64,000 bases of DNA from an uncultured Halobacteriovorax sp. (GTDB lineage: Bacteria > Bdellovibrionota > Bacteriovoracia > Bacteriovoracales > Bacteriovoracaceae). The stretch covers positions 11,675-75,674 of the forward strand of contig CAXAXS010000007.1 in the NCBI GenBank assembly GCA_963972815.1, given 5' to 3'. Positions 7,754-58,366 of the stretch are shown here, piece after piece. The notes beneath the pieces were generated by a model, which was not told where the DNA came from, did not search any database, and saw nothing but the letters and a program-made list of their open reading frames with translations. Within the stretch, counting starts at the first letter, position 1. Every line of letters begins with the position of its first letter. The translations under genes and the position numbers were made by a program.

Positions 7754-7792
7754 AAAGTTTAGACACTTTCACATTGATATCCAACAACTTAG

Positions 7793-10483: not shown

Positions 10484-10487
10484 GCAC

Positions 10488-12371: not shown

Positions 12372-12557
12372 ATCTCCTTATCGGTAAATACAAGAGAAAA
12401 TTGATAGAGAATCAACTGTTTAGGGCCAAAATAAGTGTCTAAACTTTTGACACTCTAGAGCTAATTCTTCTTATAACTTACTGAAATGACAATCATCATT
12501 TGGCATCATTTGTGCTTCTTTAAATGCCAAAGACTAATTAATGAAAGTGAGCATCTT

Positions 12558-13247: not shown

Positions 13248-13253
13248 GTTCAA

Positions 13254-14255
13254 TTGATAAACGGTGTTCTAATAGAGCTTGAAAAAATTAAAGACCCATA
13301 CTCTGGTTTAGGGCAGTTTTGTTTGCACCTAGGCCAGGCTATCTCAAAAAATAATTCAACGCTATCCATTGCAGCTCTTCAAAGCCAGGACTCCGCCGAG
13401 ACTGGGCTGATTAAAATTCCAGAGCGTCGAACTTGGCATAAGTTTTTTCCACCAAAAGCGAAACTTTGGCATCTCACCCATCAAGACTCACGATATACTC
13501 CGCCGCTTAATTCTCCTTATATTTTGACGATTCATGATCTTAATGATCTTGTTGAAAAGCCCGAACAACGTCTCATCACCGAAGCAAAGATTCAAAAATT
13601 AGTCTCACATGCGCAACATCTTGTTTGTATTTCAGAGTTCACTAAAAAAGAAGTTCTCAGCAATTTTAAAGTTACGACTGATATTAGCGTCATTCAAAAC
13701 GGTGTCCCCTCTCTTTATGGTCATCAAGAGCCAGCCCGGCTGCCTGGTAGGCCTTTCTTTTTTAATATTGGAACAGTTTTAAGGAAAAAAAACACACATG
13801 TTATTCAAGACCTGGCACTGCTTATGCCGGATTTTGATTTTATCATTGGCGGTTCACTCACATCTGATTATGCAAAAGACCTCTTGAGTAAAGAAATGAA
13901 GAATGTTTTTTTCGTTGGCACAATCAGTGATCAAGAAAAAAACTGGTATCTTGAAAATTGCCAAGCGTTCTTATTCCCTTCACTGCTTGAAGGTTTCGGC
14001 ATTCCCATCGTAGAGGCCATGTCTAAAGGTAAACCTCTTTTTCTCTCCACAAAAACATCTGTCCCTGAAACCGGTGGTCCAGATGCTTATTATTTTGAAA
14101 GTTTTGAAGCGACACAAATGAAGCTGATTATAGAAAATGGTTTAAATGACTTTGATGAAAGTAAAAAGAAAAGACTTATTGAGCGTGCCAAGACTTATAA
14201 CTGGAATACGGCCGCCAAAGCCTATCTTAAAATTTACAATGATCTTCTAATTTAA
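13254..14255 (+). CDS. glycosyltransferase, GT-B fold (family 1/4-like)
   Basis: 333 aa, TTG start. C-terminal sugar-donor motif FPSLLEGFGIPIVEAMSKGKP (E-x7-E). Confidence 0.7.
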   Translation: MINGVLIELEKIKDPYSGLGQFCLHLGQAISKNNSTLSIAALQSQDSAETGLIKIPERRTWHKFFPPKAKLWHLTHQDSRYTPPLNSPYILTIHDLNDLVEKPEQRLITEAKIQKLVSHAQHLVCISEFTKKEVLSNFKVTTDISVIQNGVPSLYGHQEPARLPGRPFFFNIGTVLRKKNTHVIQDLALLMPDFDFIIGGSLTSDYAKDLLSKEMKNVFFVGTISDQEKNWYLENCQAFLFPSLLEGFGIPIVEAMSKGKPLFLSTKTSVPETGGPDAYYFESFEATQMKLIIENGLNDFDESKKKRLIERAKTYNWNTAAKAYLKIYNDLLI

Positions 14256-43773: not shown

Positions 43774-44901
43774 GTGTCAAAAATCGTCTTAATTGCGCTC
43801 TGCATTCTCGCCCCAATTTCAAATACTTTTGCTTTTGATGCCACGGTTAAGGGTTTTATTGCTCTTGATATGCTCGTGCTCAAAAAAGAAACTGGCAGAA
43901 AACAGGAAGCAGAAACTGGGATCGGCACACTCGATCTTAAAGTCTACGCTACTCATGACGACTTCAGCATGAAGATCAAACTCGATCTCGATGATGGCAG
44001 TATTGGCGATGCCTACAATATATTCGAAGAGGCCACTGTAAGTTACCGTGTTCTTCCCGATCACCAAATTATTATGGGTAAAGGCAAAGTCGCTTTTCAC
44101 CAAATGCATTGGGGTGTGATCAGTCCATCATTCGTTGATGGCGGGGCTGAGCTCTCACCAGATCACAGTCTCTACGACCTGGATAATAGACTGCTACTTT
44201 CTTGGCGCTGGGGTGGATTCTCTCGCGGCTTTTTTAACTACCTAACATATTTTGGCGAAGCCAAATCAATTTCAACAAACAGTGACGGCACTCCTCGCGT
44301 TTCAACTTCAGGCACAGCTCCTAATCAAAGATATTCTTTAAGCTACAGAAATGAGAAAACTTTCTCTTCAAAAGAGCAGGCCGGTATCGCCAATAAATTT
44401 GAATGGTTTTTCAATCGTCAGCTTTCAGCTTCTGCTGGTGGTATGTATTATTATAACGAAATCAATCCAAAAAATAATTGGGCACTTGACCTGGCCGGTA
44501 AATACTCTGATCGCCAGCTCGAAGTTTGGGCCGAGTACGTTCACGCCTTCACTTCAACTCACTACGCCGCCCGCTACGCAACACTTAGAAAGCACGAAAA
44601 TCTTTTTCAAATCGGCGCTGAATACTACATGACTGACTTCTACAACGTTCTCACCAATGTTGAAGCGGCGGTAGTGAATAATCAACACCACGGTGATCCG
44701 ATTGGTGAGTTTAACGATGGTAAGAAAGTTAAGACAAAGACGTATAAAGCAGAAGCTGGTGTAAAGCTTAAGCTGCATAAGTCAGCTTTCATTACTCTTG
44801 GTGCACAGGTCGAAAAGCAAAACGTAGTGATTGCCGCTGATAATAGCGATCAAGATAATTATGCTTATATTCTTGCTTCTAAGTTTTCTTTTTTCTTCTA
44901 A
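43774..44901 (+). CDS. hypothetical outer-membrane porin-like protein
   Basis: 375 aa, GTG start after GGGAGA. Signal peptide SKIVLIALCILAPISNTFA, alternating beta-strand pattern, and an aromatic terminus SKFSFFF typical of OM barrels. Confidence 0.55.
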   Translation: MSKIVLIALCILAPISNTFAFDATVKGFIALDMLVLKKETGRKQEAETGIGTLDLKVYATHDDFSMKIKLDLDDGSIGDAYNIFEEATVSYRVLPDHQIIMGKGKVAFHQMHWGVISPSFVDGGAELSPDHSLYDLDNRLLLSWRWGGFSRGFFNYLTYFGEAKSISTNSDGTPRVSTSGTAPNQRYSLSYRNEKTFSSKEQAGIANKFEWFFNRQLSASAGGMYYYNEINPKNNWALDLAGKYSDRQLEVWAEYVHAFTSTHYAARYATLRKHENLFQIGAEYYMTDFYNVLTNVEAAVVNNQHHGDPIGEFNDGKKVKTKTYKAEAGVKLKLHKSAFITLGAQVEKQNVVIAADNSDQDNYAYILASKFSFFF

Positions 44902-46031
44902 CGAGTCAGCGGGGAGAGCTTAAGAATTTTCCCCGTATCTGTTCCGACTAAGATATGACCGCGTTGATCAACCAAGACTGATCTGATTCTCTCTTCAAGG
45001 GCGCTCAAGTAGCGCTCTTCTTTTATCGAAATATTGCCAACCATCACGACGCGATTGAGATGCTCAAGCGCTAATGCGCCAGAGAAAAAGCTCCCCTTCC
45101 AGCTTGGAAAAGCCGCGCCTTGATAGCGAGTTAAATCACTAGGCGCAATAGATGGTAGCCATACATGTCTTGGATTTTCAACGCCGGGAAGTTTTACGTG
45201 CTCAGTAATCTTAGGACCATAGTATTCGCGCCCGTAAGTGGCTTTAGGCCAACCGTAATTTGCGGCCTTGACCACTAGGTTGATCTCATCCCCGCCGCGC
45301 GGGCCGTGCTCATTAACCCATAACTCTTTTGACTCTTGATCATAATAGAGGCCTTGGGGATTTCTATGACCGTAGCTCCAAATCTCAGCAAGTGCATTCT
45401 TTGTGTTTAAGAATGGGTTATCTTTCGGAATCGAGCCATCTAAGTTTAAACGTACTATTTTGCCCATATGCTTTGATAGGTCCTGCGAGAGTTCGCGCTC
45501 CGTTCGCTCACCAAGAGAGACAAAGATATGCCCTTGGTGATCAAAAGCGATACGTGAGCCATAGTGAGCAGCTGTACTTTGCGGCGGCCTTGCTTCAAAG
45601 AGTGATTTACTTTCAACTAACTTATTCCCCACAAGTTTAGCTCGCTCGAGTCGCGTGGCCGAGAGCTCACCCAGCGGCGCCGAGTAAGTATAATAAATAT
45701 ATTGATTGCTTTTAAAGTCTGGATCAACCGCAATATCGAGAAGGCCACCTTGGCCCTCACTTAAAACTTTTTGAACACCTGAGATGACTTCTAAATTTTT
45801 TGTCTTCAGATCAAAAGTTTTAATTTGTCCGTCACGTAAAGTTAAAATGAGTTTATCACTCTCAACAAAGTCCATGGCCCAGATGACTCCACCAATTTTG
45901 TCAGACAGCGTCTCGACAAGCATTGGTACTTCTTTGTCTTTGAGATCAGAGATAGGGACTTTAGGTGGCTCAGTTGAAGAGCAAGAGCTAAGGGTCAGAA
46001 GGAATAGTAGGACACATAAAAGATTTTTCAT
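44898..46031 (-). CDS. PQQ-dependent sugar dehydrogenase (soluble aldose/sorbosone dehydrogenase, YliI-like)
   Basis: 377 aa. Lipobox LTLSSC. Beta-propeller motifs GGLLDIAVDPDF, HYGSRIAFD, GHRNPQGL, EHGPRGGDEIN. Confidence 0.75.
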   Translation of the reverse strand: MKNLLCVLLFLLTLSSCSSTEPPKVPISDLKDKEVPMLVETLSDKIGGVIWAMDFVESDKLILTLRDGQIKTFDLKTKNLEVISGVQKVLSEGQGGLLDIAVDPDFKSNQYIYYTYSAPLGELSATRLERAKLVGNKLVESKSLFEARPPQSTAAHYGSRIAFDHQGHIFVSLGERTERELSQDLSKHMGKIVRLNLDGSIPKDNPFLNTKNALAEIWSYGHRNPQGLYYDQESKELWVNEHGPRGGDEINLVVKAANYGWPKATYGREYYGPKITEHVKLPGVENPRHVWLPSIAPSDLTRYQGAAFPSWKGSFFSGALALEHLNRVVMVGNISIKEERYLSALEERIRSVLVDQRGHILVGTDTGKILKLSPLTR

Positions 46032-46049
46032 GTGTCCTAGTCTAACAAA

Positions 46050-47636
46050 CTAGGCTGGAACCACCACCGTTTTCGTGTGAAGTTTATTTGCTCGACCAGA
46101 AGGGTCGGCATTATAATCCTGCCATTTTGGAATCCAGCGACTTACATTTTTAACCATGCCAGCGTGTCCAAAGAGGTCTTGAAATATTCCACGAAACAGA
46201 AAGGCTTCCTTTGTCATAGGCGTATTGTGAGGATAGAGCTCGCTTGCCTTGGCAAAGCTAATGTCATCAACGGTGCGTTCTCCCAGATCCTTGAGCATAT
46301 CAATCCACGAATAACCCACTCCGTCAGAAAATTGCTCTTTTTGACGCCAAAGAACTGAATCCGGAAGCCACTCTCCTTTTACAAAAGCGCTTCTGAGCAC
46401 GTCTTTTTCCATACGCACACCTGGTTTAATTTCTTTCAGCTTAGGGTCCACGTCCATGGCAACTTTTAAAAACTCTGGATCGAGAAAAGGAACTCGTGCT
46501 TCAACCGCCGCTCCCATAGTCGAGCGATCAGCACGAAGAACATCAGAAGTGTGAAGGCGCTTTACGCGTGAAACACATTCCTTATGGAACTCAACCGAAT
46601 CCGGTGCATGGGCAAAGTAGAGATATCCGCCAAAAATTTCGTCAGCTCCTTCGCCAGAAAGAACAACTTTGACGCCTTGGCGAGAGATTTCCTTACTCAT
46701 GAGATACATGGGAGTCGAGGCCCTAATCGTTGTTATATCGTAGGTCTCAGTTAACCAAATCAAATGTTCGATCGCCTTCATGCCTTCTTCGATGGTGGCC
46801 ACAACTTCCGTATGATCACTATCAATAAATGCTGCCACTTCACGGGCGCGAATAAGATCGGGTGAGTCGATATCAAAGCCCACACTAAAAGTTTTAAGGC
46901 GACGCCCTTTGGCCTTTAAAAGTCTCGCAGCAATGGCGCTAACCAGGGATGAGTCGAGTCCACCAGAGAGTAAGGCACCGACAGGCACATCACCCATTAA
47001 CCTTTTTTCTACCGAAGCAATTAGTGTATCTCTAAGTTTTGAGCCATCACTAGTTGGAATAATCGCATCATCAAACCATGTTGGTTTAAACCAGCGAACA
47101 AAACCTGTCTCTAGAGTAAACATATGTCCTGGTGGAAATTCTTCGATAGTTTCACAGTGCTCAAACAATGCTTTTTGTTCTGAACCAAACCATAGACCGC
47201 CTGTGGCATCGCGACCAACATACATTGGCTTAATACCAATCGCATCTCGAGCTGCGAAGATTTTTTTGCCATCGACAATGACAAAGGCAAAGTCACCGTC
47301 GATATGTTCTAAGACTTTCTCGCCGTAAGCTTCATAGCCGCGAAGAATGGCTTCGCTATCAGACTTAGTAGTAAAGACTGAGCCTAGTGTTGATCTTATA
47401 GATTCGTGATTCCAAATCTCTCCGTTATGGACTAGGGCAGCTCCTGAGCCGCTCACGATGGGCTGTTTGCCAGTGTGCAGATCGACGATGGCCAACCGCT
47501 GGTGAACAAGGACAGTGCCTTCAGAGGTGATGTGGTGAGCTTTCTCATCCGGACCTCGATGGGCCAAATGCTCAGCACTTTCAAGAATTTGTTCTAAACC
47601 AACTTTGCTACCTGTTACAACGACGAATCCGCACAT
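46050..47636 (-). CDS. asnB: asparagine synthase (glutamine-hydrolysing)
   Basis: The start is placed at the ATG at 47636 so that Cys2 (MCGF...) is the Ntn glutaminase nucleophile, with GGAGG 4-8 nt upstream. PP-loop LSGGLDSS. The ORF-track start at 47699 adds 21 unlikely residues. Confidence 0.9.
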   Translation of the reverse strand: MCGFVVVTGSKVGLEQILESAEHLAHRGPDEKAHHITSEGTVLVHQRLAIVDLHTGKQPIVSGSGAALVHNGEIWNHESIRSTLGSVFTTKSDSEAILRGYEAYGEKVLEHIDGDFAFVIVDGKKIFAARDAIGIKPMYVGRDATGGLWFGSEQKALFEHCETIEEFPPGHMFTLETGFVRWFKPTWFDDAIIPTSDGSKLRDTLIASVEKRLMGDVPVGALLSGGLDSSLVSAIAARLLKAKGRRLKTFSVGFDIDSPDLIRAREVAAFIDSDHTEVVATIEEGMKAIEHLIWLTETYDITTIRASTPMYLMSKEISRQGVKVVLSGEGADEIFGGYLYFAHAPDSVEFHKECVSRVKRLHTSDVLRADRSTMGAAVEARVPFLDPEFLKVAMDVDPKLKEIKPGVRMEKDVLRSAFVKGEWLPDSVLWRQKEQFSDGVGYSWIDMLKDLGERTVDDISFAKASELYPHNTPMTKEAFLFRGIFQDLFGHAGMVKNVSRWIPKWQDYNADPSGRANKLHTKTVVVPA

Positions 47637-47829
47637 AAGACCTCCATCTCTTGCCCTATCATTCAACATTTTCGTCTTTTTTTGAACAAAAAATAACAAC
47701 TAATGAGCAAGTTTTAAATATGTTCAATAAATATGAGTAAAAATAGAGTTACCTCAATCCAAGGGTCCTGAATCGAGACTGAGCTGAAAAATTTTTAGTT
47801 GGCCTAGGCAAAGACTGCGCTCAAACTGC

Positions 47830-48723
47830 CTAGTTCAAGAGCCGACTCGTTTCACTGGCGACGAATTTAATCTCTTCACGATCACAATTATTTTGTCCCA
47901 CGACGACGAGTCGATGAAGGCCTAGGTCCTTAACTGCCCTCTTCGATGACTTGAGTGACGTCACTTCAACCAGGTCTTCATTTCTTGAAGCTACCCTTTG
48001 GGGCAAAACAGAGGCGATCGAACCACTTGCTGTAGCTGCTCTTAAGGTCTCAAAACTGTCACTCAAGATAGTTGGCTTATCAAGTTTTAAGTTTTTGAGA
48101 AACTTTGAAAAATATCGAGGCAACCCATCACGGCCGGGCTCTAACGTTCCAAAGCCTAGCCTCTCTATCGTTGTCAAAGTAGCTGGAAGTGACCTCGAAA
48201 TATAGAGTCCAAGTCGGTCCTCGGCCACATCAATCGAATAAAAACGGTCTAGATTATCATTTTCGGTAATAAGCGCCGAACATAACTCCCCCTTTCTAAG
48301 CATCGTCAAAAGGTTTGAAGTTCGACTAATTTTTAGTCCAAGTCTCAAGTTAGGAAGCTTTAGCTTAAACGAGCTGATTAGTCCCGGCAGAATATTGATA
48401 GCAATGCTTTCATAGGTACCAAAGTTTATCCAACTCAACTCCGGTACAGGTTCACCATTAATATCTTTAAGTTTATCAAACGCTTCGAATGCAGGCTTTA
48501 CAATTTTCAAAATCGCTATGGCGTCTGGAGTGGGACGAACACTCCCCTTATCTCGTATCAAAAGTGGTCTACCAAATGATTGCTCCAAAGAAGTTATTGT
48601 TTGAGAAATAGCAGATGGCGTCACCTTGGCCTTTAGAGCTGCATGCTTTAGACTTCCGTGGCTAAGAACTAAGTCTAAAGTCCATAATTTCTTAATTTGG
48701 TCGACATTAAAATCTCTAGACAT
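47830..48723 (-). CDS. LysR family transcriptional regulator
   Basis: The ATG at 48723 follows GAGAGGG (the ORF track starts at a TTG at 48735). N-terminal wHTH (LVLSHGSLKHAALKAKVTPSAISQTITSLEQSFGRPLLIR) and a C-terminal substrate-binding fold. Divergent from the 48830 cluster. Confidence 0.8.
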   Translation of the reverse strand: MSRDFNVDQIKKLWTLDLVLSHGSLKHAALKAKVTPSAISQTITSLEQSFGRPLLIRDKGSVRPTPDAIAILKIVKPAFEAFDKLKDINGEPVPELSWINFGTYESIAINILPGLISSFKLKLPNLRLGLKISRTSNLLTMLRKGELCSALITENDNLDRFYSIDVAEDRLGLYISRSLPATLTTIERLGFGTLEPGRDGLPRYFSKFLKNLKLDKPTILSDSFETLRAATASGSIASVLPQRVASRNEDLVEVTSLKSSKRAVKDLGLHRLVVVGQNNCDREEIKFVASETSRLLN

Positions 48724-48737
48724 AAACCCTCTCAAGA

Positions 48738-48783
48738 TTAGCTGATCTAAACCTAGGATTAAGTAACACTAATCAATACTTAA
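48738..48783. promoter_or_regulatory. two inverted repeats in the LysR/YHS divergent intergenic region (candidate LysR operators)
   Basis: ttag-ctgat-ctaa (48738-48750, T-N11-A form) and the perfect 7-bp arms ttaagta-N11-tacttaa (48759-48783). The second is centred about 59 nt upstream of the ATG at 48830. Confidence 0.3.
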
Positions 48784-48829
48784 GGCAATTTTATCGTTAA
48801 AAATACTTATCACTAAAAAGGAGAAAGAG

Positions 48830-49321
48830 ATGAGTACGAAATGGAACAAAGCTTTAATATCAGGTTTTATAGCACTTACAATCTCATTGATGACATTTAC
48901 CACCAGCGCTGAAACATTTAGGAACACCGAGCGCTATAACCTAGAAAACGGTGTGTCTCTTAAGGGCTTCGACCCTGTCTCCTACTTCCCTGAAGGGGGA
49001 TCAAACCCACAAGAAGGGAGTGAGGAATTTGCGCTCGAGTATAAAGGAGTGGTCTACAATTTCGCTTCACAAAGTAATCAGGATCAATTCCTATCAAACC
49101 CGAGTAGATACGAACCGACTTATGGTGGCTGGTGCGCTTACGCTATGGCATCGGGCGCACAAGTTGATATTCGGCCACAGTTTTTCTCAATCAATGGCAA
49201 TCGACTACATTTCTTTGTTAGCTCAAGAGCGAAAAGGAATTTCGACAGAGAAGTTGAGGATCATGAAAATCGTGCAGATCAGTTTTGGAAACAAATTTCT
49301 GGCGAAGAACCAAGAAACTAA
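48830..49321 (+). CDS. YHS-domain-containing periplasmic protein
   Basis: 163 aa. Signal/TM segment LISGFIALTISLMTFTTSA. GFDPVSYF ... YNFASQSNQDQFLSNPSRYEPTYGGWCAYAMA matches the YHS family as I recall it. Confidence 0.7.
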   Translation: MSTKWNKALISGFIALTISLMTFTTSAETFRNTERYNLENGVSLKGFDPVSYFPEGGSNPQEGSEEFALEYKGVVYNFASQSNQDQFLSNPSRYEPTYGGWCAYAMASGAQVDIRPQFFSINGNRLHFFVSSRAKRNFDREVEDHENRADQFWKQISGEEPRN

Positions 49322-49350
49322 TCTTGTAAAAAGTTCCGCAGGAGTTAGAA

Positions 49351-50007
49351 ATGTACATTGTTAATATTTTGATACTTTTAGCACTAGCTTCTTGCGGAAA
49401 CTATAGCGAAAGCTCAGGTTTCAACGAAGAAAATTTTAGTAGAGACCTTAGTGAAAGGGTAACTTTTGACATTATTAAAAAAAATATACTCACCCCACAT
49501 TGTATAAGTTGTCACCAACAGTACGCAAACTACGAAAGCGTAGCTTCAGGAATTTCATCAATTTCTAATGCTGTGATTTCAAATCGGATGCCCAAGAACG
49601 CGCCTGTTTTAAGCAATGGGAAAAAGAGTCTGCTTGAGGCTTGGATTATTGCTGGATTGCCACGGGAAATAGGTCAGCCTCCCTCCCCGCCAGTCGATCC
49701 TAAGCTTGAGGCTACATGGGTTTCACTCTCTACAAAGGTTTTTTATCCAAAATGTCTCGCCTGTCACAACCCACAAGGTCAGGCAAAGTTTTTAGACCTA
49801 TCTACGAGACAAGCTTTTTTTTCGCAGAGAAACCGAGACTTTGGCGGGGAGACGCTAATTAACTTTGAACAACCTGAACAAAGTTATTTGATCAGCGTTA
49901 TCACGGACCCACAAGAGCCAATGCCACCGACGTGGTCAAATATCGAGCTCTTAAGCGAAGATGAAATTAACACCATAACGGAGTGGATCACACAGGGTCT
50001 ACCATAG
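49351..50007 (+). CDS. di-haem c-type cytochrome lipoprotein (two PSCyt1-like modules)
   Basis: 218 aa. Lipobox LALASC. Two CxxCH motifs, CISCH (49501-49515) and CLACH (49753-49767). Each is followed by ...MP... and ends in W-I-x-x-G-L-P (EAWIIAGLP, TEWITQGLP). Confidence 0.7.
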   Translation: MYIVNILILLALASCGNYSESSGFNEENFSRDLSERVTFDIIKKNILTPHCISCHQQYANYESVASGISSISNAVISNRMPKNAPVLSNGKKSLLEAWIIAGLPREIGQPPSPPVDPKLEATWVSLSTKVFYPKCLACHNPQGQAKFLDLSTRQAFFSQRNRDFGGETLINFEQPEQSYLISVITDPQEPMPPTWSNIELLSEDEINTITEWITQGLP

Positions 50008-50015
50008 GAACAAAA

Positions 50016-50543
50016 ATGAAAAAACTTATATCCATAATTCTATTCTATTCGCTTACCTCAAATGCAAACGTCTTTGTAGTAGATCAGGGAGATATTGAAT
50101 TTAAGGCAAAAGGTAAACCAGCACTTATAAGCATCAATGGTAAATCAGATCACTTAACAGGGAAACTTACAGAAACTGATAATGGCTTTAGTGGTGAATT
50201 TGACCTTGATCTAAATCACCTTTCAACAGGAATAGAGCTTAGAGATGAACATTTGAAAAAAACGTACCTTAAAGTAGATCAATACCCACAAGCAAAACTT
50301 CAGTTTTCAAACTTAAAGGTCTTAAAAAACCAAGAGATAGATTTTGTTGCAAGCCTAACGCTTCATGGGCAAACAAAAGAGATAAATGGAAATGCAATCG
50401 TCTCTGATAAAAATACGATCAACGCAGAATTTATAATCAACCTTGCTGATTTTAGTATTGATATTCCAAGTTTTAAAGGAATAACAGTTGCAAAGGATGT
50501 GAAAATTGAGGTCAACGCAAGCCTAAAAGAGATGATAAAATGA
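50016..50543 (+). CDS. YceI-like periplasmic protein
   Basis: The ATG at 50016 gives signal peptide MKKLISIILFYSLTSNA. FKAKGKPALISINGK ... LSTGIELRDEHLK..YL.VDQYPQAKL ... HGQTKEI is the YceI pattern. Confidence 0.7.
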   Translation: MKKLISIILFYSLTSNANVFVVDQGDIEFKAKGKPALISINGKSDHLTGKLTETDNGFSGEFDLDLNHLSTGIELRDEHLKKTYLKVDQYPQAKLQFSNLKVLKNQEIDFVASLTLHGQTKEINGNAIVSDKNTINAEFIINLADFSIDIPSFKGITVAKDVKIEVNASLKEMIK

Positions 50544-51631
50544 GATTTGTACTACTCGTTTTATTGCTGCCAAGCTTGGCTCAAGCTTATGTGGAGAATA
50601 TTACCCATGGCTATGTCAACTGCATGGCCTGCCACATTTCACAAAGTGGAGGCGGAGTTCTGACAGATTATGGCAGATCTTTGTCTAAGGAACTCATGAG
50701 CACCTGGCAAGGATGGAATGGGATTGAAAAGCCATTATTTGGAGCGATCGAAAATAGCGAAAAGATTAAAATTGGTGGCAATATTCGATCGATTCAAACA
50801 CATTTAAAAAATGATTCCTTTAAACAGGGTCAAGCATTTATCATGCAGCAGAATATAGAAGTGGCCGCTCAATATATGCAATTATGGGTTGTGGCAACAG
50901 TTGGTCTTCAGGGAGGACCGAGCAGCTCTGCGACAAAGAATGATATCATCTCTGAACGCCATTATATAAGTTACGACGTGAACGAAGAGTCACGACTCAG
51001 GGTTGGCAAGTTTAGAAGAAATTTCGGTCTAAACGACCCAGCTCATACTAGACTTACTAAATCTCCACTAGGCTTTGGATCAAACTCAGAAACATATCAA
51101 CTCGAGTTTTCAAAATTTAGTGAACAGGATGAAATTTTCATAGCAACTGATTTAGGTGATATCAATGATCCTAAGTCTAAAGAGAGTGAAAAATCATTTC
51201 TGATTAATTATGCTCGATATATTGGTTCTGATTCAAAAGTAGGGGTCAACTATCTATATGGTGAGACCGGAAATAATCGACGCAACCTCTTTGGACTCTA
51301 TAGTGTCTGGAAACTACCGTTTGAAATGTTTTTCAAGGGCGAAGCAGACTATCAACAACTACTAAGCGCTGACGAAACAATACATCTTATGGCCTCAACA
51401 TTAACTCTTGGCTACCAGGGTTTTAAGGGTTTCACTCCTTATCTCGTAAGCGATTTTGTACAAAGAGACTTAAGTAAGCACAATACGAGAACCAGTCTTT
51501 TAGGAATTGGGACTCAATGGCTACCTCTTGCACATATTGAGTTTCAAGTTGAAATTCAAAAACGTATCGACAGGACTCCGAGGCGAATTGCTAGCAATAT
51601 TGCTTGGATGATGTTTCATTTTTATTTGTGA
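50540..51631 (+). CDS. hypothetical secreted beta-barrel-like protein with N-terminal CxxCH haem-binding motif
   Basis: 363 aa, ATGA overlap with the yceI-like gene. Signal peptide MRFVLLVLLLPSLAQA, then CMACH at 50621-50635. The remaining ~320 aa show alternating amphipathic strands and an aromatic terminus MMFHFYL. Confidence 0.55.
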   Translation: MRFVLLVLLLPSLAQAYVENITHGYVNCMACHISQSGGGVLTDYGRSLSKELMSTWQGWNGIEKPLFGAIENSEKIKIGGNIRSIQTHLKNDSFKQGQAFIMQQNIEVAAQYMQLWVVATVGLQGGPSSSATKNDIISERHYISYDVNEESRLRVGKFRRNFGLNDPAHTRLTKSPLGFGSNSETYQLEFSKFSEQDEIFIATDLGDINDPKSKESEKSFLINYARYIGSDSKVGVNYLYGETGNNRRNLFGLYSVWKLPFEMFFKGEADYQQLLSADETIHLMASTLTLGYQGFKGFTPYLVSDFVQRDLSKHNTRTSLLGIGTQWLPLAHIEFQVEIQKRIDRTPRRIASNIAWMMFHFYL

Positions 51632-51637
51632 GGCTCT

Positions 51638-52231
51638 ATGAATGAACAACTTGAAGCTAGCACTAATTTTTATCAGTCGATGTCTATGCGCCGATCAATT
51701 AGAAATTTTAGTCGTAAGAAAGTTTCTAAGAAAATTCTAATCAATGCTATCAAAACGGCTGCCACCGCACCAAGTGGTGCTAATAAACAACCCTGGCATT
51801 TTGCCATTGTTAACAAACAAGAAATTAAGGATGAAATTAGAAGAGCTGCTGAGGAAGTTGAAAGAGACTTCTATCAACGAAGAGCATCGAATATTTGGCT
51901 GGAGGATTTAAAACCCTTTAAAACCGGACCGATAAAACCATATTTAAGTCAGGCAAGTTCTTTGATCGTCGTTTTTACGAGAACCGAACAAAGCTATTAC
52001 CCTATTGAATCAACAGGAATTGCAGTTGGATTTTTACTAGCTTCTCTGCATCAATCGGGGCTCGCAACTTTAACTCATACACCCAAGCCTATGACTTTTC
52101 TTAACAGCAAGCTTGGTCTAGACAAGACCTATAGACCTTATATGATTATTGTCGCAGGGTATGCGCAAAAAAGTATAGAACTACCCTTGATAACTAAAAA
52201 ACCACTCTGTGAGATCTTGAGTCTTCATTGA
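51638..52231 (+). CDS. iodotyrosine deiodinase (IYD)-type flavin nitroreductase-superfamily protein
   Basis: 197 aa. Collinear with my recollection of human IYD: RRSIRNFS / RRSVRFIS; TAATAPSGANKQPWHFAIV / TAGTAPSGAHTEPWTFVVV; E-x3-Y (EVERDFY / EEEINY); DLKPFK..IKPYL / DLKKLR..IKEYL; LITKKPL / DLKRKPL. Confidence 0.75.
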   Translation: MNEQLEASTNFYQSMSMRRSIRNFSRKKVSKKILINAIKTAATAPSGANKQPWHFAIVNKQEIKDEIRRAAEEVERDFYQRRASNIWLEDLKPFKTGPIKPYLSQASSLIVVFTRTEQSYYPIESTGIAVGFLLASLHQSGLATLTHTPKPMTFLNSKLGLDKTYRPYMIIVAGYAQKSIELPLITKKPLCEILSLH

Positions 52232-52250
52232 AGACTAGCTATTATCAGAT

Positions 52251-52868
52251 ATGCCACTAAGTGAAAATAAACAATTCTGGGAGCAAGCTTGGGCCGATGG
52301 CCGCACGCGCTTTCATCGTCCAGATCCAAACGCAGGCCTCATCAAATATGCGCAGACCATCTTTGATTCAGGAGATCGCGTTTTAGTCCCATTATGTGGC
52401 AAAAGCGTTGATATGCTATGGCTAAGTGAACGTGGCTTTGGGGTCAGTGGCGTTGAAGTTGCCAGGCTGCCAATTGATGAATTCATTAGTGAGAATAATC
52501 TAGATGGCACATGGAGTGATCACTCTTATCAAGTTAAAGGTCAGCGCATTAGTATCTTTCATCAGGATTTTTTTAATCACGATGGTCGCTACGAAGCCAT
52601 CTACGATCGCGCTTGTCTCGTTGCTCTCGCGGCCCCTTTAAGAGTAAGAATGGCCGAACGCTATAAAGCCTTACTCAAGCCAAACGGTCGAATTCTACTC
52701 ATTACGTTAAAGCATCCCACCGCTGATGGCCCGCCCTTTAGTATATCAGATGAAGAGATTAACAGACTGTTTGCTAAAGATTTTTCAATCGAACTACTCG
52801 AGATTGCAAGTGCTCCTGTTGACGAGAGAACGATTGAGATTAGAAAGCTGGAATTGCTATGTCCCTAG
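52251..52868 (+). CDS. tpm: thiopurine S-methyltransferase (TPMT) family SAM-dependent methyltransferase
   Basis: 205 aa. FWEQAWADGRTRFH ... RVLVPLCGKSVDMLWLSERGFGVSGVEV... is the TPMT family signature. Confidence 0.8.
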   Translation: MPLSENKQFWEQAWADGRTRFHRPDPNAGLIKYAQTIFDSGDRVLVPLCGKSVDMLWLSERGFGVSGVEVARLPIDEFISENNLDGTWSDHSYQVKGQRISIFHQDFFNHDGRYEAIYDRACLVALAAPLRVRMAERYKALLKPNGRILLITLKHPTADGPPFSISDEEINRLFAKDFSIELLEIASAPVDERTIEIRKLELLCP

Positions 52869-53479
52869 TCATTGGCCTGATCACTGGCTTTCTTATGTGT
52901 ATTCCCATTGGCCCTATCAATGTTTGGGTTATCAACACACGCATCAAAAAAAATGCCGCCACAGCATTAGCAATCGCTCTAGGTGGGTCACTTATGGATC
53001 TTGCCTATTTTTATACCATCCTTTCTGGTCTTTCCTTTTTTGAGTTCACCCAGACCTCAGGTTTCTACTTCAAACTCATTGGTATTCTTGTCATCCTTGT
53101 TATGGGAGTTAAAGAGCTCATGGCCAAAGGTGATATCGAAATTGCACAGGGAGAAAAGGTCACCAACAAGGGGCTCATGGCCGGTTTTATGACAGGAGTG
53201 TTGATCTATACTTCTAATCCAACGCTTATTCTTACCATGACCGGACTTGGTGCATTTATTAAGAGCCTGGAAATATTTGAGTTCAATCAACTTAATATTG
53301 TCCTTTGCGCTCTAGGACTTAGTATAGGCTCATTTTTGTGGTTTGTCCTTCTAGTCAAAGTAGTCGATCGTTATCAAGAAAAAATCCGAGAAAAATACTT
53401 AGAACTATTTAGCCGCACCAGTGGAATCCTTATGGTCGCCCTAAGTATGTATATGGGTTACAAGTTAGCAACTCTATAG
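52859..53479 (+). CDS. LysE family translocator (amino-acid/metabolite exporter)
   Basis: 206 aa. Six hydrophobic helices and an N-terminal GPINVWVIN-type motif, as in LysE/RhtB proteins. 10-nt overlap with the TPMT gene. Confidence 0.65.
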   Translation: MSLVIGLITGFLMCIPIGPINVWVINTRIKKNAATALAIALGGSLMDLAYFYTILSGLSFFEFTQTSGFYFKLIGILVILVMGVKELMAKGDIEIAQGEKVTNKGLMAGFMTGVLIYTSNPTLILTMTGLGAFIKSLEIFEFNQLNIVLCALGLSIGSFLWFVLLVKVVDRYQEKIREKYLELFSRTSGILMVALSMYMGYKLATL

Positions 53480-53547
53480 CTGAACCTAGGTTAATTAGAA
53501 AAATCTAAATATGCCCTACTCTTTATGAAACTAACCAAAGGTGTTTC

Positions 53548-54210
53548 ATGAAGATTATCCTTATAAGCCTAGTTCTACTTTCCGGCATGGCTCATTCATT
53601 CGAGATAGACCCCACTCGCTTTGACACTCTCCCTGATAAAGCAAAAGAAGTCGTCCTAGACGCAATCGTTGATTTTCCTGATCGAAGACCAAGTGTTGGC
53701 GATCAAGTACCCGATGATTTCTCCATGATGATGACAATTGAAAGACTAAAGCAACCACTTGATCAAGTTTGGGCTGCCTACACAAGTGTGGCCCCTGCTA
53801 TTGTTTGGTCGGGACCTAGAGTTAATTACGCCATGGCGATTGATCGCGATACCCAACAAGTCTATTATCCCGATGAAACTTCACCCAGGTTTAAAGAACG
53901 ACTCATGTTTATGAATTATCTTAATTTCGTGGGCAAATACATGGTCATAGGTCTTGAAGTGACAAAGATCGATCATGTAAAAAAAGAAATTGAGATCGCT
54001 TACCTCGAAGGTAATGCTTCTAGAGGAAAACAGATTCTAAAATTCAAAGCTAGTAAAAATGGAACTCAAATTAATCATATCAGTCTGTACCAAAGTGATT
54101 CTTGGTTTAGAGATCTAGTGGTTTATCCGTTTTTTCACCGCTTAACCACGGGTGAGCATCATAAGCGTATGAAACGAATGATTTTAGAGAATAAAAAAAG
54201 CCCGCTATAA
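53548..54210 (+). CDS. hypothetical secreted protein
   Basis: 220 aa. Signal peptide MKIILISLVLLSGMAHS. No family recognised. Last gene before the terminator. Confidence 0.5.
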   Translation: MKIILISLVLLSGMAHSFEIDPTRFDTLPDKAKEVVLDAIVDFPDRRPSVGDQVPDDFSMMMTIERLKQPLDQVWAAYTSVAPAIVWSGPRVNYAMAIDRDTQQVYYPDETSPRFKERLMFMNYLNFVGKYMVIGLEVTKIDHVKKEIEIAYLEGNASRGKQILKFKASKNGTQINHISLYQSDSWFRDLVVYPFFHRLTTGEHHKRMKRMILENKKSPL

Positions 54211-54220
54211 AAGCGGGCTT
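54193..54220. terminator. terminator hairpin between convergent genes
   Basis: Stem aagcccgc / gcgggctt with a 7-nt loop. On the minus strand it is followed by an uninterrupted T run, making it a strong terminator for the S8 gene that ends at 54245. It overlaps the stop of the plus-strand gene, where only a weak T tract follows. Confidence 0.7.
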
Positions 54221-54244
54221 CATTTCAAAAACTTTTAAACTGAA

Positions 54245-55570
54245 TTAAAGCTTAAACATTGAAGGAAGTGGAAGCACGAAGCCTTCACTCTTAACGTTAG
54301 ACTTAGTGTCAGTTGAAGGTACATCTTGAACGTCAGTGATCGAGTGACGAATCGCCAGATCAACATTCATTGAACGTGAAAGCTCAGCAGCGCGAACAGC
54401 ACGAGCTGTGTTCACTGTACCAGAAGTCTTAACCTTACCTACAAGCCAGTCACGAATATCAACAGTACCAAGAATGATCTTCTTGATATCACGTGGTGAA
54501 AGTGAAGTGTTGGCATCTTTAACTTGGCCAGCAACATTCGCAACGTATGGAGCCGCTTGTGATGTACCACTTACTACCAAGTACTTATTACCTGGAACAG
54601 TTGAGTCAATACCAACACCAGGAGCAGCAACGTCTACCATTTTTGCGCCGTAGTTTGAAAAGCTAGCAAGCTTATTAAACTCTAGAGCAGCTGCAACAGA
54701 AATGACGTTATCAGCTTGGATATTTGTTGGTGAAGTTGGGAACTTGTCATTGTTAAGACCATCGTTACCAGCAGCGAAAACGAACAGAGTGTTCTCTGCA
54801 GCTTGAACCATATGGTCGCCCTCTTTAATAAGAGTGTTTAGGAACTCAACAGTCAGCTCATGAATTTGCTCTTCAGTAGGTGGCTCTTTTCTCATGATTG
54901 TTCCAGCAAGCATTTCAACAATCATCTTAGCTTGTGGGTAACCCGTACCGAATGAACCGTTTGCGATATCAACTTTATGTCCGTCAATATAACGAGCAAC
55001 ATTCGTAAGCATAACCATTTGCTGAGAAGCTAGAAGCTTAAGTCCTTGCTTGATTAAGAAAAGACCAGGTCCTGATTTGTCTGCTTTGAATGGCAGCTTA
55101 ACTTCAGTTGGAATAATCTTAACGGCCATAATTTTGGCAAGATCAGAATCTTTAGCAGTGATGCCGGCAACGTGAGTTCCGTGCATGAAGTTGCCATAGA
55201 CTTGAAGAGATTTGATAAACTCTTCATCTTGAACCTTCATCTTAACCCAATCTTTTTCTTCCTGAGTAGCCGTGCCATAGAAAGACTTGGTTTGGATTTC
55301 AAAGAAACGACGAACATCAAAAGTTAGAGTACCCATGTATGAGTAGTCGATGATTTGATTGTTCGACTCAGCGAAATTCCAACCATTGATATCGTCTTGA
55401 TAACCATTGTAGTCATCATCGCGATCGTTGGCTTCAACTTCACCTTCGTTAATCCAAGCTTTATCGTAAAGCTCTTTGTGTAATAGATCAGTACCGGAAT
55501 CGATAACTGCAATCGAAGCACCATGAGCAGTGAATGCACTCATAGCGAATATAGCTAGCAACTTTTTCAT
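54245..55570 (-). CDS. secreted subtilisin-like serine protease (S8)
   Basis: 441 aa. Signal peptide MKKLLAIFAMSAFTAHG. Catalytic triad motifs VIDSGTD (Asp), HGTHVAGI (His), SGTSQAAPY (Ser). Confidence 0.85.
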   Translation of the reverse strand: MKKLLAIFAMSAFTAHGASIAVIDSGTDLLHKELYDKAWINEGEVEANDRDDDYNGYQDDINGWNFAESNNQIIDYSYMGTLTFDVRRFFEIQTKSFYGTATQEEKDWVKMKVQDEEFIKSLQVYGNFMHGTHVAGITAKDSDLAKIMAVKIIPTEVKLPFKADKSGPGLFLIKQGLKLLASQQMVMLTNVARYIDGHKVDIANGSFGTGYPQAKMIVEMLAGTIMRKEPPTEEQIHELTVEFLNTLIKEGDHMVQAAENTLFVFAAGNDGLNNDKFPTSPTNIQADNVISVAAALEFNKLASFSNYGAKMVDVAAPGVGIDSTVPGNKYLVVSGTSQAAPYVANVAGQVKDANTSLSPRDIKKIILGTVDIRDWLVGKVKTSGTVNTARAVRAAELSRSMNVDLAIRHSITDVQDVPSTDTKSNVKSEGFVLPLPSMFKL

Positions 55571-55695
55571 TAAGAACCTCCGTGTCTAAGCCACGCTAAA
55601 TAACAGAATAAGATAAGCGTTAATTAAAACGCCCAGAAGTTGAACTGTCCCGTCCAACATTCTGTCTTTTACTGTCATTTTTGAGGTTTTAAATC

Positions 55696-57201
55696 TTAAG
55701 CTAACTTTCTAACTTTACCGACATTTCCGACCAAAAAGATCAACATTAATCCCACGATCATGCCGCCGCCAAAGTTACCAGGACCACCAGTCATATCAAC
55801 ACTGCCACAGGCGCCACCACCCTCTTCGTCAGAGCGTGTAATGATTGGTGTAGGGTTTGATGTATTAAGTGGGTCACTACCAGAGAGAATAGGATCTTCA
55901 GCTATTGTGCGGGCCGCTTCTGCGACTGCTGACACGGCGAAAACAAATCCGCCACCACAACGTCCTTGGACACTGCACATACCACTCATTTGCGAACCGC
56001 TGGCGCGCAAAATTCTCTCAACTTGGTGGGCCGCAATATCAGTATTCACACTTTTCATTAAAGAAACGATGCCAGCGATATGTGGCGCCGCCATAGAAGT
56101 ACCGCTCATCTCAGTCACTGTATCTGAGCCTGGAGATGTGCGACCTGTATTTCCAAGCGAGACAACACCATTTGGTGATTGTCCGCCGGGTGCCACGATA
56201 TCAACAGCGCTGCCATGATTTGAAAACCATGAGAGTGCACGTGACTTATTAGAAGCACCAACTGTTACAACATTATTACAAGTTGCTGGTGTCACTGGAT
56301 TTTGATCGATGTCTTGTGCACTATTACCGGCGGCCACTACAACAACGGCACCTTGAGTGACGGCGTAATCAATCGCCGCTTGCATGGTGAAGTCGCATCT
56401 GCCAGAACCACCAAGACTTAGGTTAATAACTTTTGCTGGATTAGGATTGGGACGAAGACCATTAACGATGCCTTGTGGTCCACCTGCGGCCCAACGAATG
56501 CCATCGGCGATATCAGAAGTGTAGCCACCACATTTACCAAGCACGCGAATTGGCAAAAGTTTGGCGCGAGGATTGATACCCGCAACATCTTTACCATTAT
56601 CTGTTTCGGCTAAAATTGTTCCGGCCACGTGAGTGCCGTGCCAAGAGGAATTACTTGATTGACCTTGGTAACAAGGATCACCCGGAGCAATCCAATCACC
56701 CGGATCGCTAGCATCGCGATCGCGCCCATCACCATCATTAGACATTGATGTATCGCTAATAAGGTCGGCCCCTTGAAGAATGCGGCCACCAAAGTCGCGA
56801 TGGTCACGAATACCTGTATCAACAACAGCGACGACGATGTCTTCGCCTTCGCTTTCTGTCCACACTGTATTGAGATCAATTCCAGAGAAGTTATCAAAGA
56901 AGTGCCATTGATCATCAGCGCGAGGATCATTGACGCTTGGATTAGTCATACCAAAATGCGAGAGAACTCTATCCTCTTCAACAATGGCCACGTCGGCCCA
57001 TTGCTTTTTGGCCTCTTCGACCGACTCACCTTCTTTTAGTTCGACAATCATGCGGCCGCTATCAGGGGCGCTTCGACCTGAACTTCTGCCTAAGAATTTA
57101 CCATCCTGGTCTTTCTTAAAATTGACGATCAAACGCTTGGGCATTTGCGCCGACAGAGTAAGGGGAAATAAAAGAATGAGTACTAATAAGCGTGTGACCA
57201 T
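55696..57201 (-). CDS. secreted subtilisin-like serine protease (S8) with C-terminal GlyGly-CTERM-like sorting tail
   Basis: The ATG at 57201 follows AAGGAAGGA (the ORF track starts at a TTG at 57243). Signal peptide MVTRLLVLILLFPLTLSA. VVDTGI, HGTHVAGT, SGTSMAAPH. The last 41 aa are GGGACGSVDMTGGPGNFGGG-MIVGLMLIFLVG-NVGKVRKLA. Confidence 0.85.
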   Translation of the reverse strand: MVTRLLVLILLFPLTLSAQMPKRLIVNFKKDQDGKFLGRSSGRSAPDSGRMIVELKEGESVEEAKKQWADVAIVEEDRVLSHFGMTNPSVNDPRADDQWHFFDNFSGIDLNTVWTESEGEDIVVAVVDTGIRDHRDFGGRILQGADLISDTSMSNDGDGRDRDASDPGDWIAPGDPCYQGQSSNSSWHGTHVAGTILAETDNGKDVAGINPRAKLLPIRVLGKCGGYTSDIADGIRWAAGGPQGIVNGLRPNPNPAKVINLSLGGSGRCDFTMQAAIDYAVTQGAVVVVAAGNSAQDIDQNPVTPATCNNVVTVGASNKSRALSWFSNHGSAVDIVAPGGQSPNGVVSLGNTGRTSPGSDTVTEMSGTSMAAPHIAGIVSLMKSVNTDIAAHQVERILRASGSQMSGMCSVQGRCGGGFVFAVSAVAEAARTIAEDPILSGSDPLNTSNPTPIITRSDEEGGGACGSVDMTGGPGNFGGGMIVGLMLIFLVGNVGKVRKLA

Positions 57202-57312
57202 TTTTCCTTCCTTGGAGAGGTCTATCGCTATTGTAACTTTCAAATCCCGGGCCAGCGTCCCAGCACATTATTCCGGTGTATTAGACGGTTATACTCGGGG
57301 GCAAATTGACCT

Positions 57313-57346
57313 TAAAAACGCAAAATGGCCCCTATATAGGGGCCAT
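57313..57346 (-). terminator. rho-independent terminator downstream of the S1 protease gene
   Basis: 9-bp stem atggcccct / aggggccat with loop atat. On the minus strand it is followed by ttttgcgttttt. Lies 38 nt past the stop at 57384. Confidence 0.7.
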
Positions 57347-57383
57347 CTTATTGAATCTTTGAATTTTATTTTGCAGCGTGTAA

Positions 57384-58289
57384 TTATTTAGTTTCTTCCG
57401 CTGGAACGTTACCACCAAGGATATCCATTAGGGCTTGGATATTAGTGATACGTGTGACGTCTTCGCCGCGACAACCTTCGTCAGTGCAATGATTAGAAAC
57501 ACGACAACCTTGACCATAGTCGTAGTTATAATCGTTCTCGCCGCGAACTAGGATCCCTTCAACCACACCAGTTTCTGCGTTAAATACTGCTGAACCAGAG
57601 TTACCACCGTAAGTATCTAGGTTAGCAATGAAGAAAACTGAGCTGTCGTTACTGCGAACGTTAGCGCCAGCAGCAACTTTAGTTGGAAGACCAGTTGGGT
57701 GACCAATCACAACGATTGGAGTCTTATCTTCGATTTTACCAGTTGTACGAACAGTAAGTGGCGTACGATCAGTCACCTTGCGATCAAGACGGATAAGAGC
57801 GAAGTCATCCTGGCTTGAGCGATCAAGTGATTGAGAGATAATTTTGCTACAGCCATAAACATTTGAAGCGTCAACAGTCATAGCTGCTTCAGTGTTGGCA
57901 TCATTATTAGCGTAACCGAATACCCATTTGTTTGAAGCACAGTCATCAGCTGAAGTCATACAGTGACCAGCCGTTACGAGAAGGTCTTCACCAACTAGAA
58001 AACCTGAACAGTTAGCAGCTGTCATTTGCTCAGAAAAACGCTCAGACTCACACATGCCGCGCTCTTTAAGAGATGGGCCTGTAATAGTAGCAAGATCGCC
58101 TTCGATAGTGATTTTTGAAGAATCGATCATACCAGCTGTTGATTTAGCAAGTTCAAGGTGAAGTGTATTTGTAACTTCATAAAGATCTAAACGGTCATCG
58201 GCACCGTAAATGACTTTATTATTTGTATCGCGAGCAAAGCTCAAAGTTGAAAGAGCTGCAAGTGCGATGATCATCCCTAATTTGTACAT
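57384..58289 (-). CDS. secreted trypsin-like serine protease (S1 family)
   Basis: The ATG at 58289 follows AGGA (the ORF track starts at a TTG at 58355 with no SD). Signal peptide MYKLGMIIALAALSTLSFA. His motif LVTAGHC, an Asp in DFALIRL, and Ser motif GGNSGSAVF. Confidence 0.8.
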   Translation of the reverse strand: MYKLGMIIALAALSTLSFARDTNNKVIYGADDRLDLYEVTNTLHLELAKSTAGMIDSSKITIEGDLATITGPSLKERGMCESERFSEQMTAANCSGFLVGEDLLVTAGHCMTSADDCASNKWVFGYANNDANTEAAMTVDASNVYGCSKIISQSLDRSSQDDFALIRLDRKVTDRTPLTVRTTGKIEDKTPIVVIGHPTGLPTKVAAGANVRSNDSSVFFIANLDTYGGNSGSAVFNAETGVVEGILVRGENDYNYDYGQGCRVSNHCTDEGCRGEDVTRITNIQALMDILGGNVPAEETK

Positions 58290-58366
58290 ACGTCGTTTTC
58301 CTAGAAATAGTTGACTCAAAGATGACATTAAAGAATGCCCGAGCTTGTTCTTCAACTAACAAGTTC

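Follow-up and report, generated by a model that had tools for sequence, protein, structure and literature searches.

An iodotyrosine deiodinase cassette and a TPMT-LysE unit of probably separate history abut in an uncultured Halobacteriovorax species

The locus described here lies within a stretch of 64,000 nucleotides (the window) of contig CAXAXS010000007.1 from an uncultured Halobacteriovorax sp. (assembly GCA_963972815.1), in which a gene encoding a predicted iodotyrosine deiodinase (IYD) is followed on the same strand by genes for a TPMT-family methyltransferase and a LysE-family transporter. A preliminary description had read these three genes as one pathway of dehalogenation, methylation and export. 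The comparative analysis points instead, with a probability of roughly 0.75, to two abutting units of separate evolutionary history, the IYD cassette and a TPMT-LysE-p220 unit (p220 being the gene that follows LysE), and no halide-methylation and export pathway is indicated. The first unit would be a cassette that shifts position and context among the Bdellovibrionota, composed of a divergent LysR regulator, four envelope proteins and the cytoplasmic IYD as its last member. The second would be a backbone unit next to an asparagine synthase gene (AsnS) that is free of IYD in the closest relative. In the window species, the cassette would have come to lie upstream of TPMT, replacing the ancestral upstream region of that gene.

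The decisive evidence against a three-gene pathway is the comparison, from the TPMT side, of the interval between AsnS (reverse strand) and the first of two S8 peptidase genes (reverse strand), which occupies 47637-54245 in the window. Here the order is AsnS, LysR, the cassette through IYD, TPMT-LysE-p220 and S8. TPMT is found beside AsnS in nine related contigs (compared loci carry L numbers), and four of the nine have no IYD at the locus. These are L174, with AsnS, TPMT and S8 (TPMT 44% identical to that of the window), L173, with an LpxO-like gene and p220 between TPMT and S8 (60%), and L168 and L169, which encode AsnS, TPMT-LysE-p220 and S8 (90%). The order in L083, L088 and L170, and in L085 up to the contig limit, is AsnS, TPMT, LysR, the cassette through IYD and S8 (TPMT 61-66% identical), and L167 contains an extra 821-aa gene between TPMT and LysR (55%). 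Five more distant relatives thus have TPMT beyond LysR, in a convergent unit of its own, with no LysE. The window TPMT shares 61-65% identity with the L083 and L085 proteins, a divergence equal to that of the neighbouring genes. An orthologue of LysE is present only in L168 and L169, likewise after TPMT, and in none of the other cassette or TPMT loci. Because the pairing of AsnS with TPMT recurs across arrangements, including relatives without IYD, TPMT is a backbone gene that resides next to AsnS. The cassette forms a block apart, whose position relative to TPMT varies or which is absent. As an observation on the interval itself, it is a variable slot that holds, besides TPMT, either nothing, an LpxO-like hydroxylase with p220, LysE with p220, or the IYD cassette.

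The closest relative, L168, is collinear with the window at 85-88% DNA identity by blastn. One block matches window positions 44000-47698 to L168 positions 6163-9861 (87.6%) and a second matches 52252-55998 to 10002-13749 (84.7%). The 4.55-kb segment that separates the two blocks in the window, from LysR through IYD, corresponds to 140 nt at the same place in L168, a clean indel that marks the boundaries of the cassette. The other arrangements share a conserved intergenic region between AsnS and TPMT, and nothing in the window matches the conserved block of that region. It follows that the gene order in the window is a derived one in which TPMT no longer has an upstream region of its own.

Scanning a single genome for each GTDB species identified 596 IYD-encoding loci, the best 80 of which were kept with 6 kb of flanking sequence. 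No TPMT gene was detected within 6 kb at any of these 80 loci from other species using phmmer and a hidden Markov model (HMM) built from 120 TPMTs. LysE genes were found downstream of IYD at two of the 80 loci (L072 and L077), a count that rests on Pfam checks and a LysE HMM, single-sequence phmmer being insufficient for LysE in the flanks. The two LysE proteins are 29% identical to each other, the L072 protein is about 21% identical to the window LysE, and the L077 protein gave a marginal phmmer match (E 0.17); the two cases are independent of each other, and their frequency is about what so abundant a family would give. Clustering of the neighbours of the 80 loci, which are mostly proteobacterial, planctomycete and Chloroflexota, revealed no recurrent partner gene. 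Adjacency of IYD, TPMT and LysE is observed only in the window's own species (L001, L002 and L087), and the survey of co-occurrence that the preliminary description had proposed therefore did not bear out a conserved three-gene arrangement.

On its upstream side, IYD is the last member of a recurring cassette with LysR and four envelope-protein genes (Table 1). The full order of LysR and YHS-cytochrome c-YceI-p363-IYD is found in the window, L083, L085, L088, L101, L106, L167, L170, L171 (with one additional gene) and L172, and contigs that are cut at the end show the p363-IYD part only (L084, L087, L089, L090 and L092). IYD directly follows p363 in L083-L085, L087-L090, L092, L101, L106, L167, L170 and L172, with one gene between the two in L171. 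LysR adjoins the cassette in L088, L101, L106, L167 and L170-L172, and the window LysR is 79-81% identical to the cassette-side LysR of L083 and L085. Orthologues of the YHS gene hold the same position in L083, L085, L088, L101, L106, L167 and L170-L172. The cassette is present without TPMT or LysE in L101, L106, L171 and L172. In the literature searched there is no description of an IYD at the end of a cytochrome/YHS/YceI operon, and searches on IYD gene neighbourhoods and on YceI/YHS/cytochrome operons found nothing relevant.

L171 and L172 are Bdellovibrionaceae contigs in which IYD is 55-56% identical to the window protein and the surroundings are unrelated to the window locus. The cassette adjoins phage-type integrases in both (L171 11348-15574 and L172 684-2068), one of them also with a relaxase and a NikA/MobC-like gene, which suggests that it is carried on integrative mobile elements. 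A trio of a thioredoxin, a DsbD/CcdA-type membrane protein (DsbD_TM) and a 281-aa gene accompanies the cassette in both contigs. The additional gene between p363 and IYD in L171 (9517-10017, forward strand) encodes a 166-aa GAF protein homologous to free methionine-R-sulfoxide reductase (fRMsr) of the YebR/MsrC type, with matches to E. coli YebR (1vhm, 2.7e-37) and to a Neisseria protein (3mmh, 2e-31). A metagenome-assembled genome (MAG) of the Oligoflexales (L014) encodes an fRMsr (4721-5206, forward strand), a CxxCH lipoprotein, IYD and LysR, such that fRMsr lies two genes upstream of IYD. L171 further encodes an extracytoplasmic function (ECF) sigma factor with NrsF, and SigF/NrsF and Trx/DsbD genes are near the cassettes of L171 and L172.

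Table 1. Features of the IYD locus, in positions of the window.
Feature	Position	Strand	Remarks
Segment from LysR through IYD, 4.55 kb	47699-52251		Indel relative to L168
LysR-family regulator	47830-48735	-	Called gene probably 47830-48723, 297 aa; Pfam HTH_1 and LysR_substrate; divergent from the cassette
Periplasmic YHS-domain protein with signal peptide	48830-49321	+	NCBIfam NF041384, 113 bits against a cutoff of 70; first operon gene
Dihaem c-type cytochrome lipoprotein	49351-50007	+	Lipobox LASC; haem motifs CISCH and CLACH
Periplasmic YceI-like protein	50016-50543	+	Pfam YceI 1.5e-19; open reading frame opens at 49983, likely start ATG 50016
p363, predicted outer-membrane fused cytochrome-porin	50540-51631	+	363 aa; overlaps YceI by 4 nt; ends 6 nt before IYD
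IYD, predicted halotyrosine reductive dehalogenase	51638-52231	+	197 aa; FMN flavoprotein; cytoplasmic; final gene of the cassette
TPMT-family methyltransferase, S-adenosylmethionine (SAM)-dependent	52251-52868	+	205 aa; backbone gene outside the cassette
LysE-family membrane transporter	52859-53479	+	206 aa
p220, secreted or periplasmic protein	53548-54210	+	Ends the TPMT-LysE-p220 unit; orthologues in L168/L169 and L173
GC-rich hairpin	54197-54221		10-bp stem, 6 GC pairs; between the convergent p220 and peptidase S8 genes

The gap between IYD and TPMT is 19 nt, and the end of TPMT overlaps the start of LysE by 10 nt. The three open reading frames (ORFs), the gap and the overlap agree exactly with the preliminary description, and the contiguity of its gene grouping stands; what it missed is the closer coupling of IYD on the upstream side, since the 6 nt between p363 and IYD are tighter than the 19 nt between IYD and TPMT. 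The IYD-TPMT junction is real and is no assembly artefact: an NCBI MAG contig (GCA_002379495.1) and a JGI metagenome contig carry it at 99.8-100% identity, as does a Tara scaffold covering p363-IYD-TPMT. In the public MAG and JGI records (L001 and L002), stretches of N (586 and 20 bases; in L001 at about 7915-8014 and in other gaps) break the gene call of cytochrome c. A frameshift in this gene in L001 and L002 was considered and rejected, as the apparent break is the runs of N and the window sequence is intact. The L001 gene call for YceI is 50016-50543, the same as the start preferred here.

The 25-nt hairpin downstream of p220 is the sole terminator-like site at the end of the forward-strand unit. 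No terminator-like site was found between IYD and the end of p220, and the only forward-strand match within 48830-54197 is weak and lies inside the cytochrome c gene (49841-49858). Internal promoters were not indicated either, with 12 promoter-like sites found and 15.5 expected in shuffled sequence, hence no enrichment. Because there is no terminator-like site before the hairpin and the upstream region of TPMT is lost, TPMT-LysE-p220 probably depends on read-through transcription from the cassette in this species, which would make the locus a recently fused operon.

The 197-aa gene product belongs to the Nitroreductase family of Pfam (PF00881, 7e-18). In a search against all PDB sequences, its six top matches are all IYDs (4.6e-48 to 4.6e-24), the best solved relative being IYD of Haliscomenobacter hydrossis (5ko7, 4.6e-48), with human chains 4ttb (2e-32) and 5yak (9.6e-32), the two mouse chains 3tnz and 3gb5 (about 1e-28) and Thermotoga neapolitana IYD (6pz0, 4.6e-24) also among them. 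The best non-IYD structure of the nitroreductase superfamily reached 1.2e-8. The alignment with human IYD spans residues 3-194 of the query. In the PDB alignments, the zwitterion triad E75/Y79/K100 corresponds to E91/Y95/K116 in Haliscomenobacter and E157/Y161/K182 in human IYD, and T148 corresponds to T173 and T239, the Thr at N5 of the flavin mononucleotide (FMN); the latter column is confirmed by the human T239A mutant chain 5yak. A48 aligns with the Ala whose backbone amide contacts the phenolate. Across 33 aligned homologues (49-68% identity), R18/R19/R22 of the RRSxR FMN-phosphate motif, A48, E75, Y79, K100 and T148 are all invariant. The protein has no signal peptide.

According to Sun et al. 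(PMC8668982), what matters in an IYD is the E1 lid with its Glu/Tyr/Lys triad, together with the Thr at N5. The protein carries these together with the FMN-binding nitroreductase core, the RRSxR phosphate site and the Ala backbone amide, so that its membership of the IYD subgroup of the nitroreductase superfamily is well supported at the level of sequence. The assignment made in the preliminary description is thus upheld by the PDB matches, the full-length alignment and the zwitterion ligands, which are retained on alignment to the human and Haliscomenobacter enzymes. Of the marks it had relied on, the E-x3-Y pair (E75/Y79) holds, but the Lys of the DLK segment (K92) varies among homologues, and the third ligand is K100 in 'IKPYL'. 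The E2 loop has 11 residues instead of about 20 and is the shortest of the 33, 9 residues below the other 32. The E2 extension is found in nearly all mesophile IYDs yet is non-essential; neither the E2 loop nor the N-terminal extension is needed, and Thermotoga IYD without E2 is still active (PMC8668982). The short loop would be a minor peculiarity rather than a reason to exclude the protein from the subgroup. The function of the window IYD is most likely that of the characterised IYDs. The reduced FMN would act on free 3-halotyrosine in one-electron steps that release its I, Br or Cl, with the substrate zwitterion closing the Glu75/Tyr79/Lys100 lid and Thr148 stabilising the flavin semiquinone, and the products would be tyrosine and halide.

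The next gene product matches the TPMT family of Pfam (PF05724, 1.2e-45, 156 bits against a cutoff of 26) and the one after it matches LysE over its full length (PF01810, 8.3e-17, 61.7 bits against 25.6), in agreement with the families first assigned to them. TPMT falls below the equivalog cutoffs of TIGR03840 (TMPT_Se_Te, 164.7 against 223.2) and PRK13255 (159 against 213). Among solved structures, it is closest to human TPMT (2bzg, 2.6e-24) and the Pseudomonas syringae enzyme (1pjz, 4e-20), followed by matches to the halide methyltransferases 8ajp (HMT, 1.3e-7) and 3lcc (HOL1, 2.5e-4). A HOL/HTMT-type halide methyltransferase was considered as an identity for this protein and set aside on similarity, the E-values being 13 to 20 orders weaker than those against TPMT proper. 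In Bdellovibrionota, about 16 clusters at 55-90% identity make up a small clade that includes this protein; the classical TPMTs follow at 44% or less. A literature search on bacterial TPMT with methyl iodide found nothing relevant. LysE scored 23 bits against a cutoff of 214 for the L-lysine exporter equivalog TIGR00948. The p220 gene product has no Pfam or PDB match, and its single-sequence AlphaFold2 model is unusable (pLDDT 38.6).

The first gene of the cassette encodes a YHS-domain protein matching NF041384, a family of YHS domain-containing (seleno)proteins, and carries a conserved Cys in 'GGWCAYAM'. No in-frame TGA (selenocysteine, Sec) codon is present, the YHS ORFs being uninterrupted in the window, L083, L085, L088, L097, L101-L103 and L106. 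The cytochrome c gene product matches PSCyt1 of Pfam (8.7e-8, 33.1 bits against a cutoff of 22), and its match to Cytochrome_CBB3 (24.7 bits) is under the cutoff of 27. The p363 gene product has no match in Pfam or NCBIfam. It contains a signal peptide and a single CxxCH motif, of which C28, C31 and H32 are invariant in 44 homologues; M102, H141, H169 and H332, likewise invariant, could serve as distal haem ligands. The AlphaFold2 model (pLDDT 88.6) is a 16-strand barrel, and its top Foldseek matches are OmpT, OmpU, OprP and OprO, at about 1e-11. Because of the signal peptide, the invariant CxxCH and the modelled barrel matching porins, p363 is predicted to be a fused cytochrome-porin. About 126 clusters make up the family, every one labelled 'hypothetical'; they come from Bdellovibrionales and Halobacteriovoraceae, and the family is restricted to Bdellovibrionota. 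The iron-oxidation protein Cyc2 is defined by AxPxFAR[Q/K][T/Y], placed five residues ahead of CxxCH, and by PxL, four residues after it (PMC8406198). Identification of p363 as Cyc2 was rejected, both motifs being missing from its sequence (...AYVENITHGYVNCMACHISQSGGG...).

Homologues of p363 were placed on 80 metagenome contigs and 83 loci were analysed. YceI is directly upstream of p363 in 60 of these, and a cytochrome c homologue (52/83) and YHS (8/83) also occur upstream. IYD is directly downstream in 11/83, TPMT is present in 4/83, and neither LysE nor p220 was found at any of the 83. At distant p363 loci (L095-L166), the cytochrome c-YceI-p363 core adjoins genes for a CopA-like P-type ATPase (5 loci), a CsoR-like repressor (5) and a CusA-like resistance-nodulation-division transporter (4). 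These neighbours and the ECF sigma factor with NrsF in L171 hint at a link of the module to copper or other metals.

The cassette could be a module for coping with stress: its envelope redox proteins would meet an extracytoplasmic oxidant or metal and IYD would salvage damaged free amino acids, as fRMsr would likewise do in some variants. Free methionine sulfoxide and halotyrosine both arise from damage of the hypohalous-acid type. Such a role is suggested because two enzymes for the repair of free amino acids occur with LysR and periplasmic redox proteins. An envelope-cytoplasm cassette that senses or quenches oxidant, reactive halogen or copper-type stress and repairs halogenated or oxidised free amino acids would be an undescribed system of predatory Bdellovibrionota, and is put forward here as a tentative possibility.

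Two side observations concern the borders of the interval. The AsnS ORF (46050-47699, reverse strand) has its mechanical start at a TTG 21 codons upstream of 'MCGF', and the true start is almost certainly the Met preceding the catalytic Cys, at about 47636. On the other side, positions 54245-58355 (reverse strand) encode three consecutive secreted serine proteases, two S8 subtilases and a trypsin-like protein, which are kept in all relatives and fit the predatory lifestyle of Bdellovibrionota.

A dedicated pathway, in which IYD would free halide, TPMT would turn that halide (or else a thiol or selenol) into a volatile methylated product and the amino-acid product would leave through LysE, is very improbable. 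It would account for three contiguous genes on one strand with so short a gap and an overlap, and co-transcription is likely in this genome given the absence of a terminator between the genes and the lost TPMT upstream region. PF05724 includes halide/thiol methyltransferases, with 8ajp and 3lcc as weak matches, and no more than a few kb separate TPMT from IYD in six arrangements. The adjacency, however, is seen in a single species-level lineage; in the closest relative TPMT-LysE-p220 stands without IYD at the locus, the AsnS/TPMT pair occurs in genomes without IYD there, and the cassette occurs in four contigs without TPMT or LysE. The survey of 80 IYD loci likewise yielded no TPMT and two unrelated LysE genes, TPMT is nearer to thiopurine and selenium/tellurium (Se/Te) enzymes than to halide methyltransferases, and there is no obvious rationale for exporting salvaged tyrosine. 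The pathway is kept in consideration since the genes, physically fused as they are in this species, could have been recruited to such a use, but as first proposed it is unsupported. It is also highly unlikely that the locus serves selenium or tellurium metabolism, with the YHS (seleno)protein member, a 'selenium-metabolism' LysR and a Se/Te-methylating TPMT cooperating and IYD incidental. The YHS protein is well above the NF041384 cutoff, the best NCBIfam match of LysR is the selenium-metabolism-associated LysR and the best model for TPMT is TMPT_Se_Te; yet the LysR match is uninformative (52 bits against a cutoff of 250), TPMT remains under the equivalog cutoff and outside the cassette, and the uninterrupted YHS ORFs of the window and its relatives have no Sec codon. 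Equally, the 197-aa protein is most unlikely to be a generic nitroreductase or flavin reductase that resembles IYD, acting as a cytoplasmic metal or quinone reductase tied to the cytochrome module. The Pfam match to the general Nitroreductase family only, an E2 extension 9 residues short and neighbours of redox and metal type would be consistent with such a reductase. All IYD-specific residues are nevertheless present and invariant, the match to Haliscomenobacter IYD exceeds the best non-IYD structure by far (4.6e-48 against 1.2e-8), and E2 is dispensable for the activity of Thermotoga IYD (PMC8668982).

The reading of two abutting units has points that weigh against it as well. No RNA-seq runs holding the locus were found, DNA runs only. 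As for a rearrangement mechanism, the cassette ends show no direct or inverted repeats, att-like sites, tRNA genes or Rfam elements. The lack of the cassette in the L168 type is established at this locus only. TPMT is within about 7 kb of IYD in all six arrangements with both genes, as a loose functional link would produce, although shared synteny explains this nearness. The proposed stress role is guilt by association, drawn from CopA-, CsoR- and CusA-like genes near distant p363 loci and from SigF/NrsF and Trx/DsbD near the L171 and L172 cassettes.

The exposure of Bacteria and Archaea to halotyrosines is unstudied (PMC8668982), and bacterial IYDs have been characterised biochemically. A halide-methylation pathway would have linked their dehalogenation to methyl halide emission, which is not supported here; the locus is rather a cautionary case of how a cassette that lands in a variable genomic slot can create an operon-like junction. 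As a lead, IYD of Bdellovibrionota is consistently tied to LysR and envelope cytochromes and sometimes to fRMsr, which points to salvage of oxidatively damaged free amino acids. If this is true, the cassette would give a bacterial IYD its first physiological context, and p363 would represent a second family of monohaem cytochrome-porins, outside Cyc2.

Compared with the known IYDs (5ko7, 4ttb/4ttc and 6pz0), the window protein exhibits the same FMN alpha+beta core, RRSxR motif, E1 triad, Thr and Ala in an end-to-end alignment, and differs in its short N-terminus and in having the shortest E2 loop; the mammalian enzyme has a membrane anchor, whereas the window IYD has none. The window TPMT shares the fold and the SAM motif region 'VLVPLCGKS.DM.WL' with bacterial Tpm (TIGR03840; 1pjz) and human TPMT (2bzg), but lies below the cutoffs of the bacterial Tpm equivalog and in a separate clade of Bdellovibrionota. 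The halide/thiol methyltransferases (HOL1, 3lcc; HMT, 8ajp) belong to the same Pfam family, and their pairwise similarity to the window TPMT is weak. LysE matches only the general family model of the LysE/RhtB amino-acid exporters (PF01810). The p363 protein resembles Cyc2 of iron-oxidising bacteria (PMC8406198) in its signal peptide, single N-terminal CxxCH and predicted 16-strand barrel of the OprO/OprP type; Cyc2 pairs with Cyc1 or an oxidase, whereas p363 pairs with YceI.

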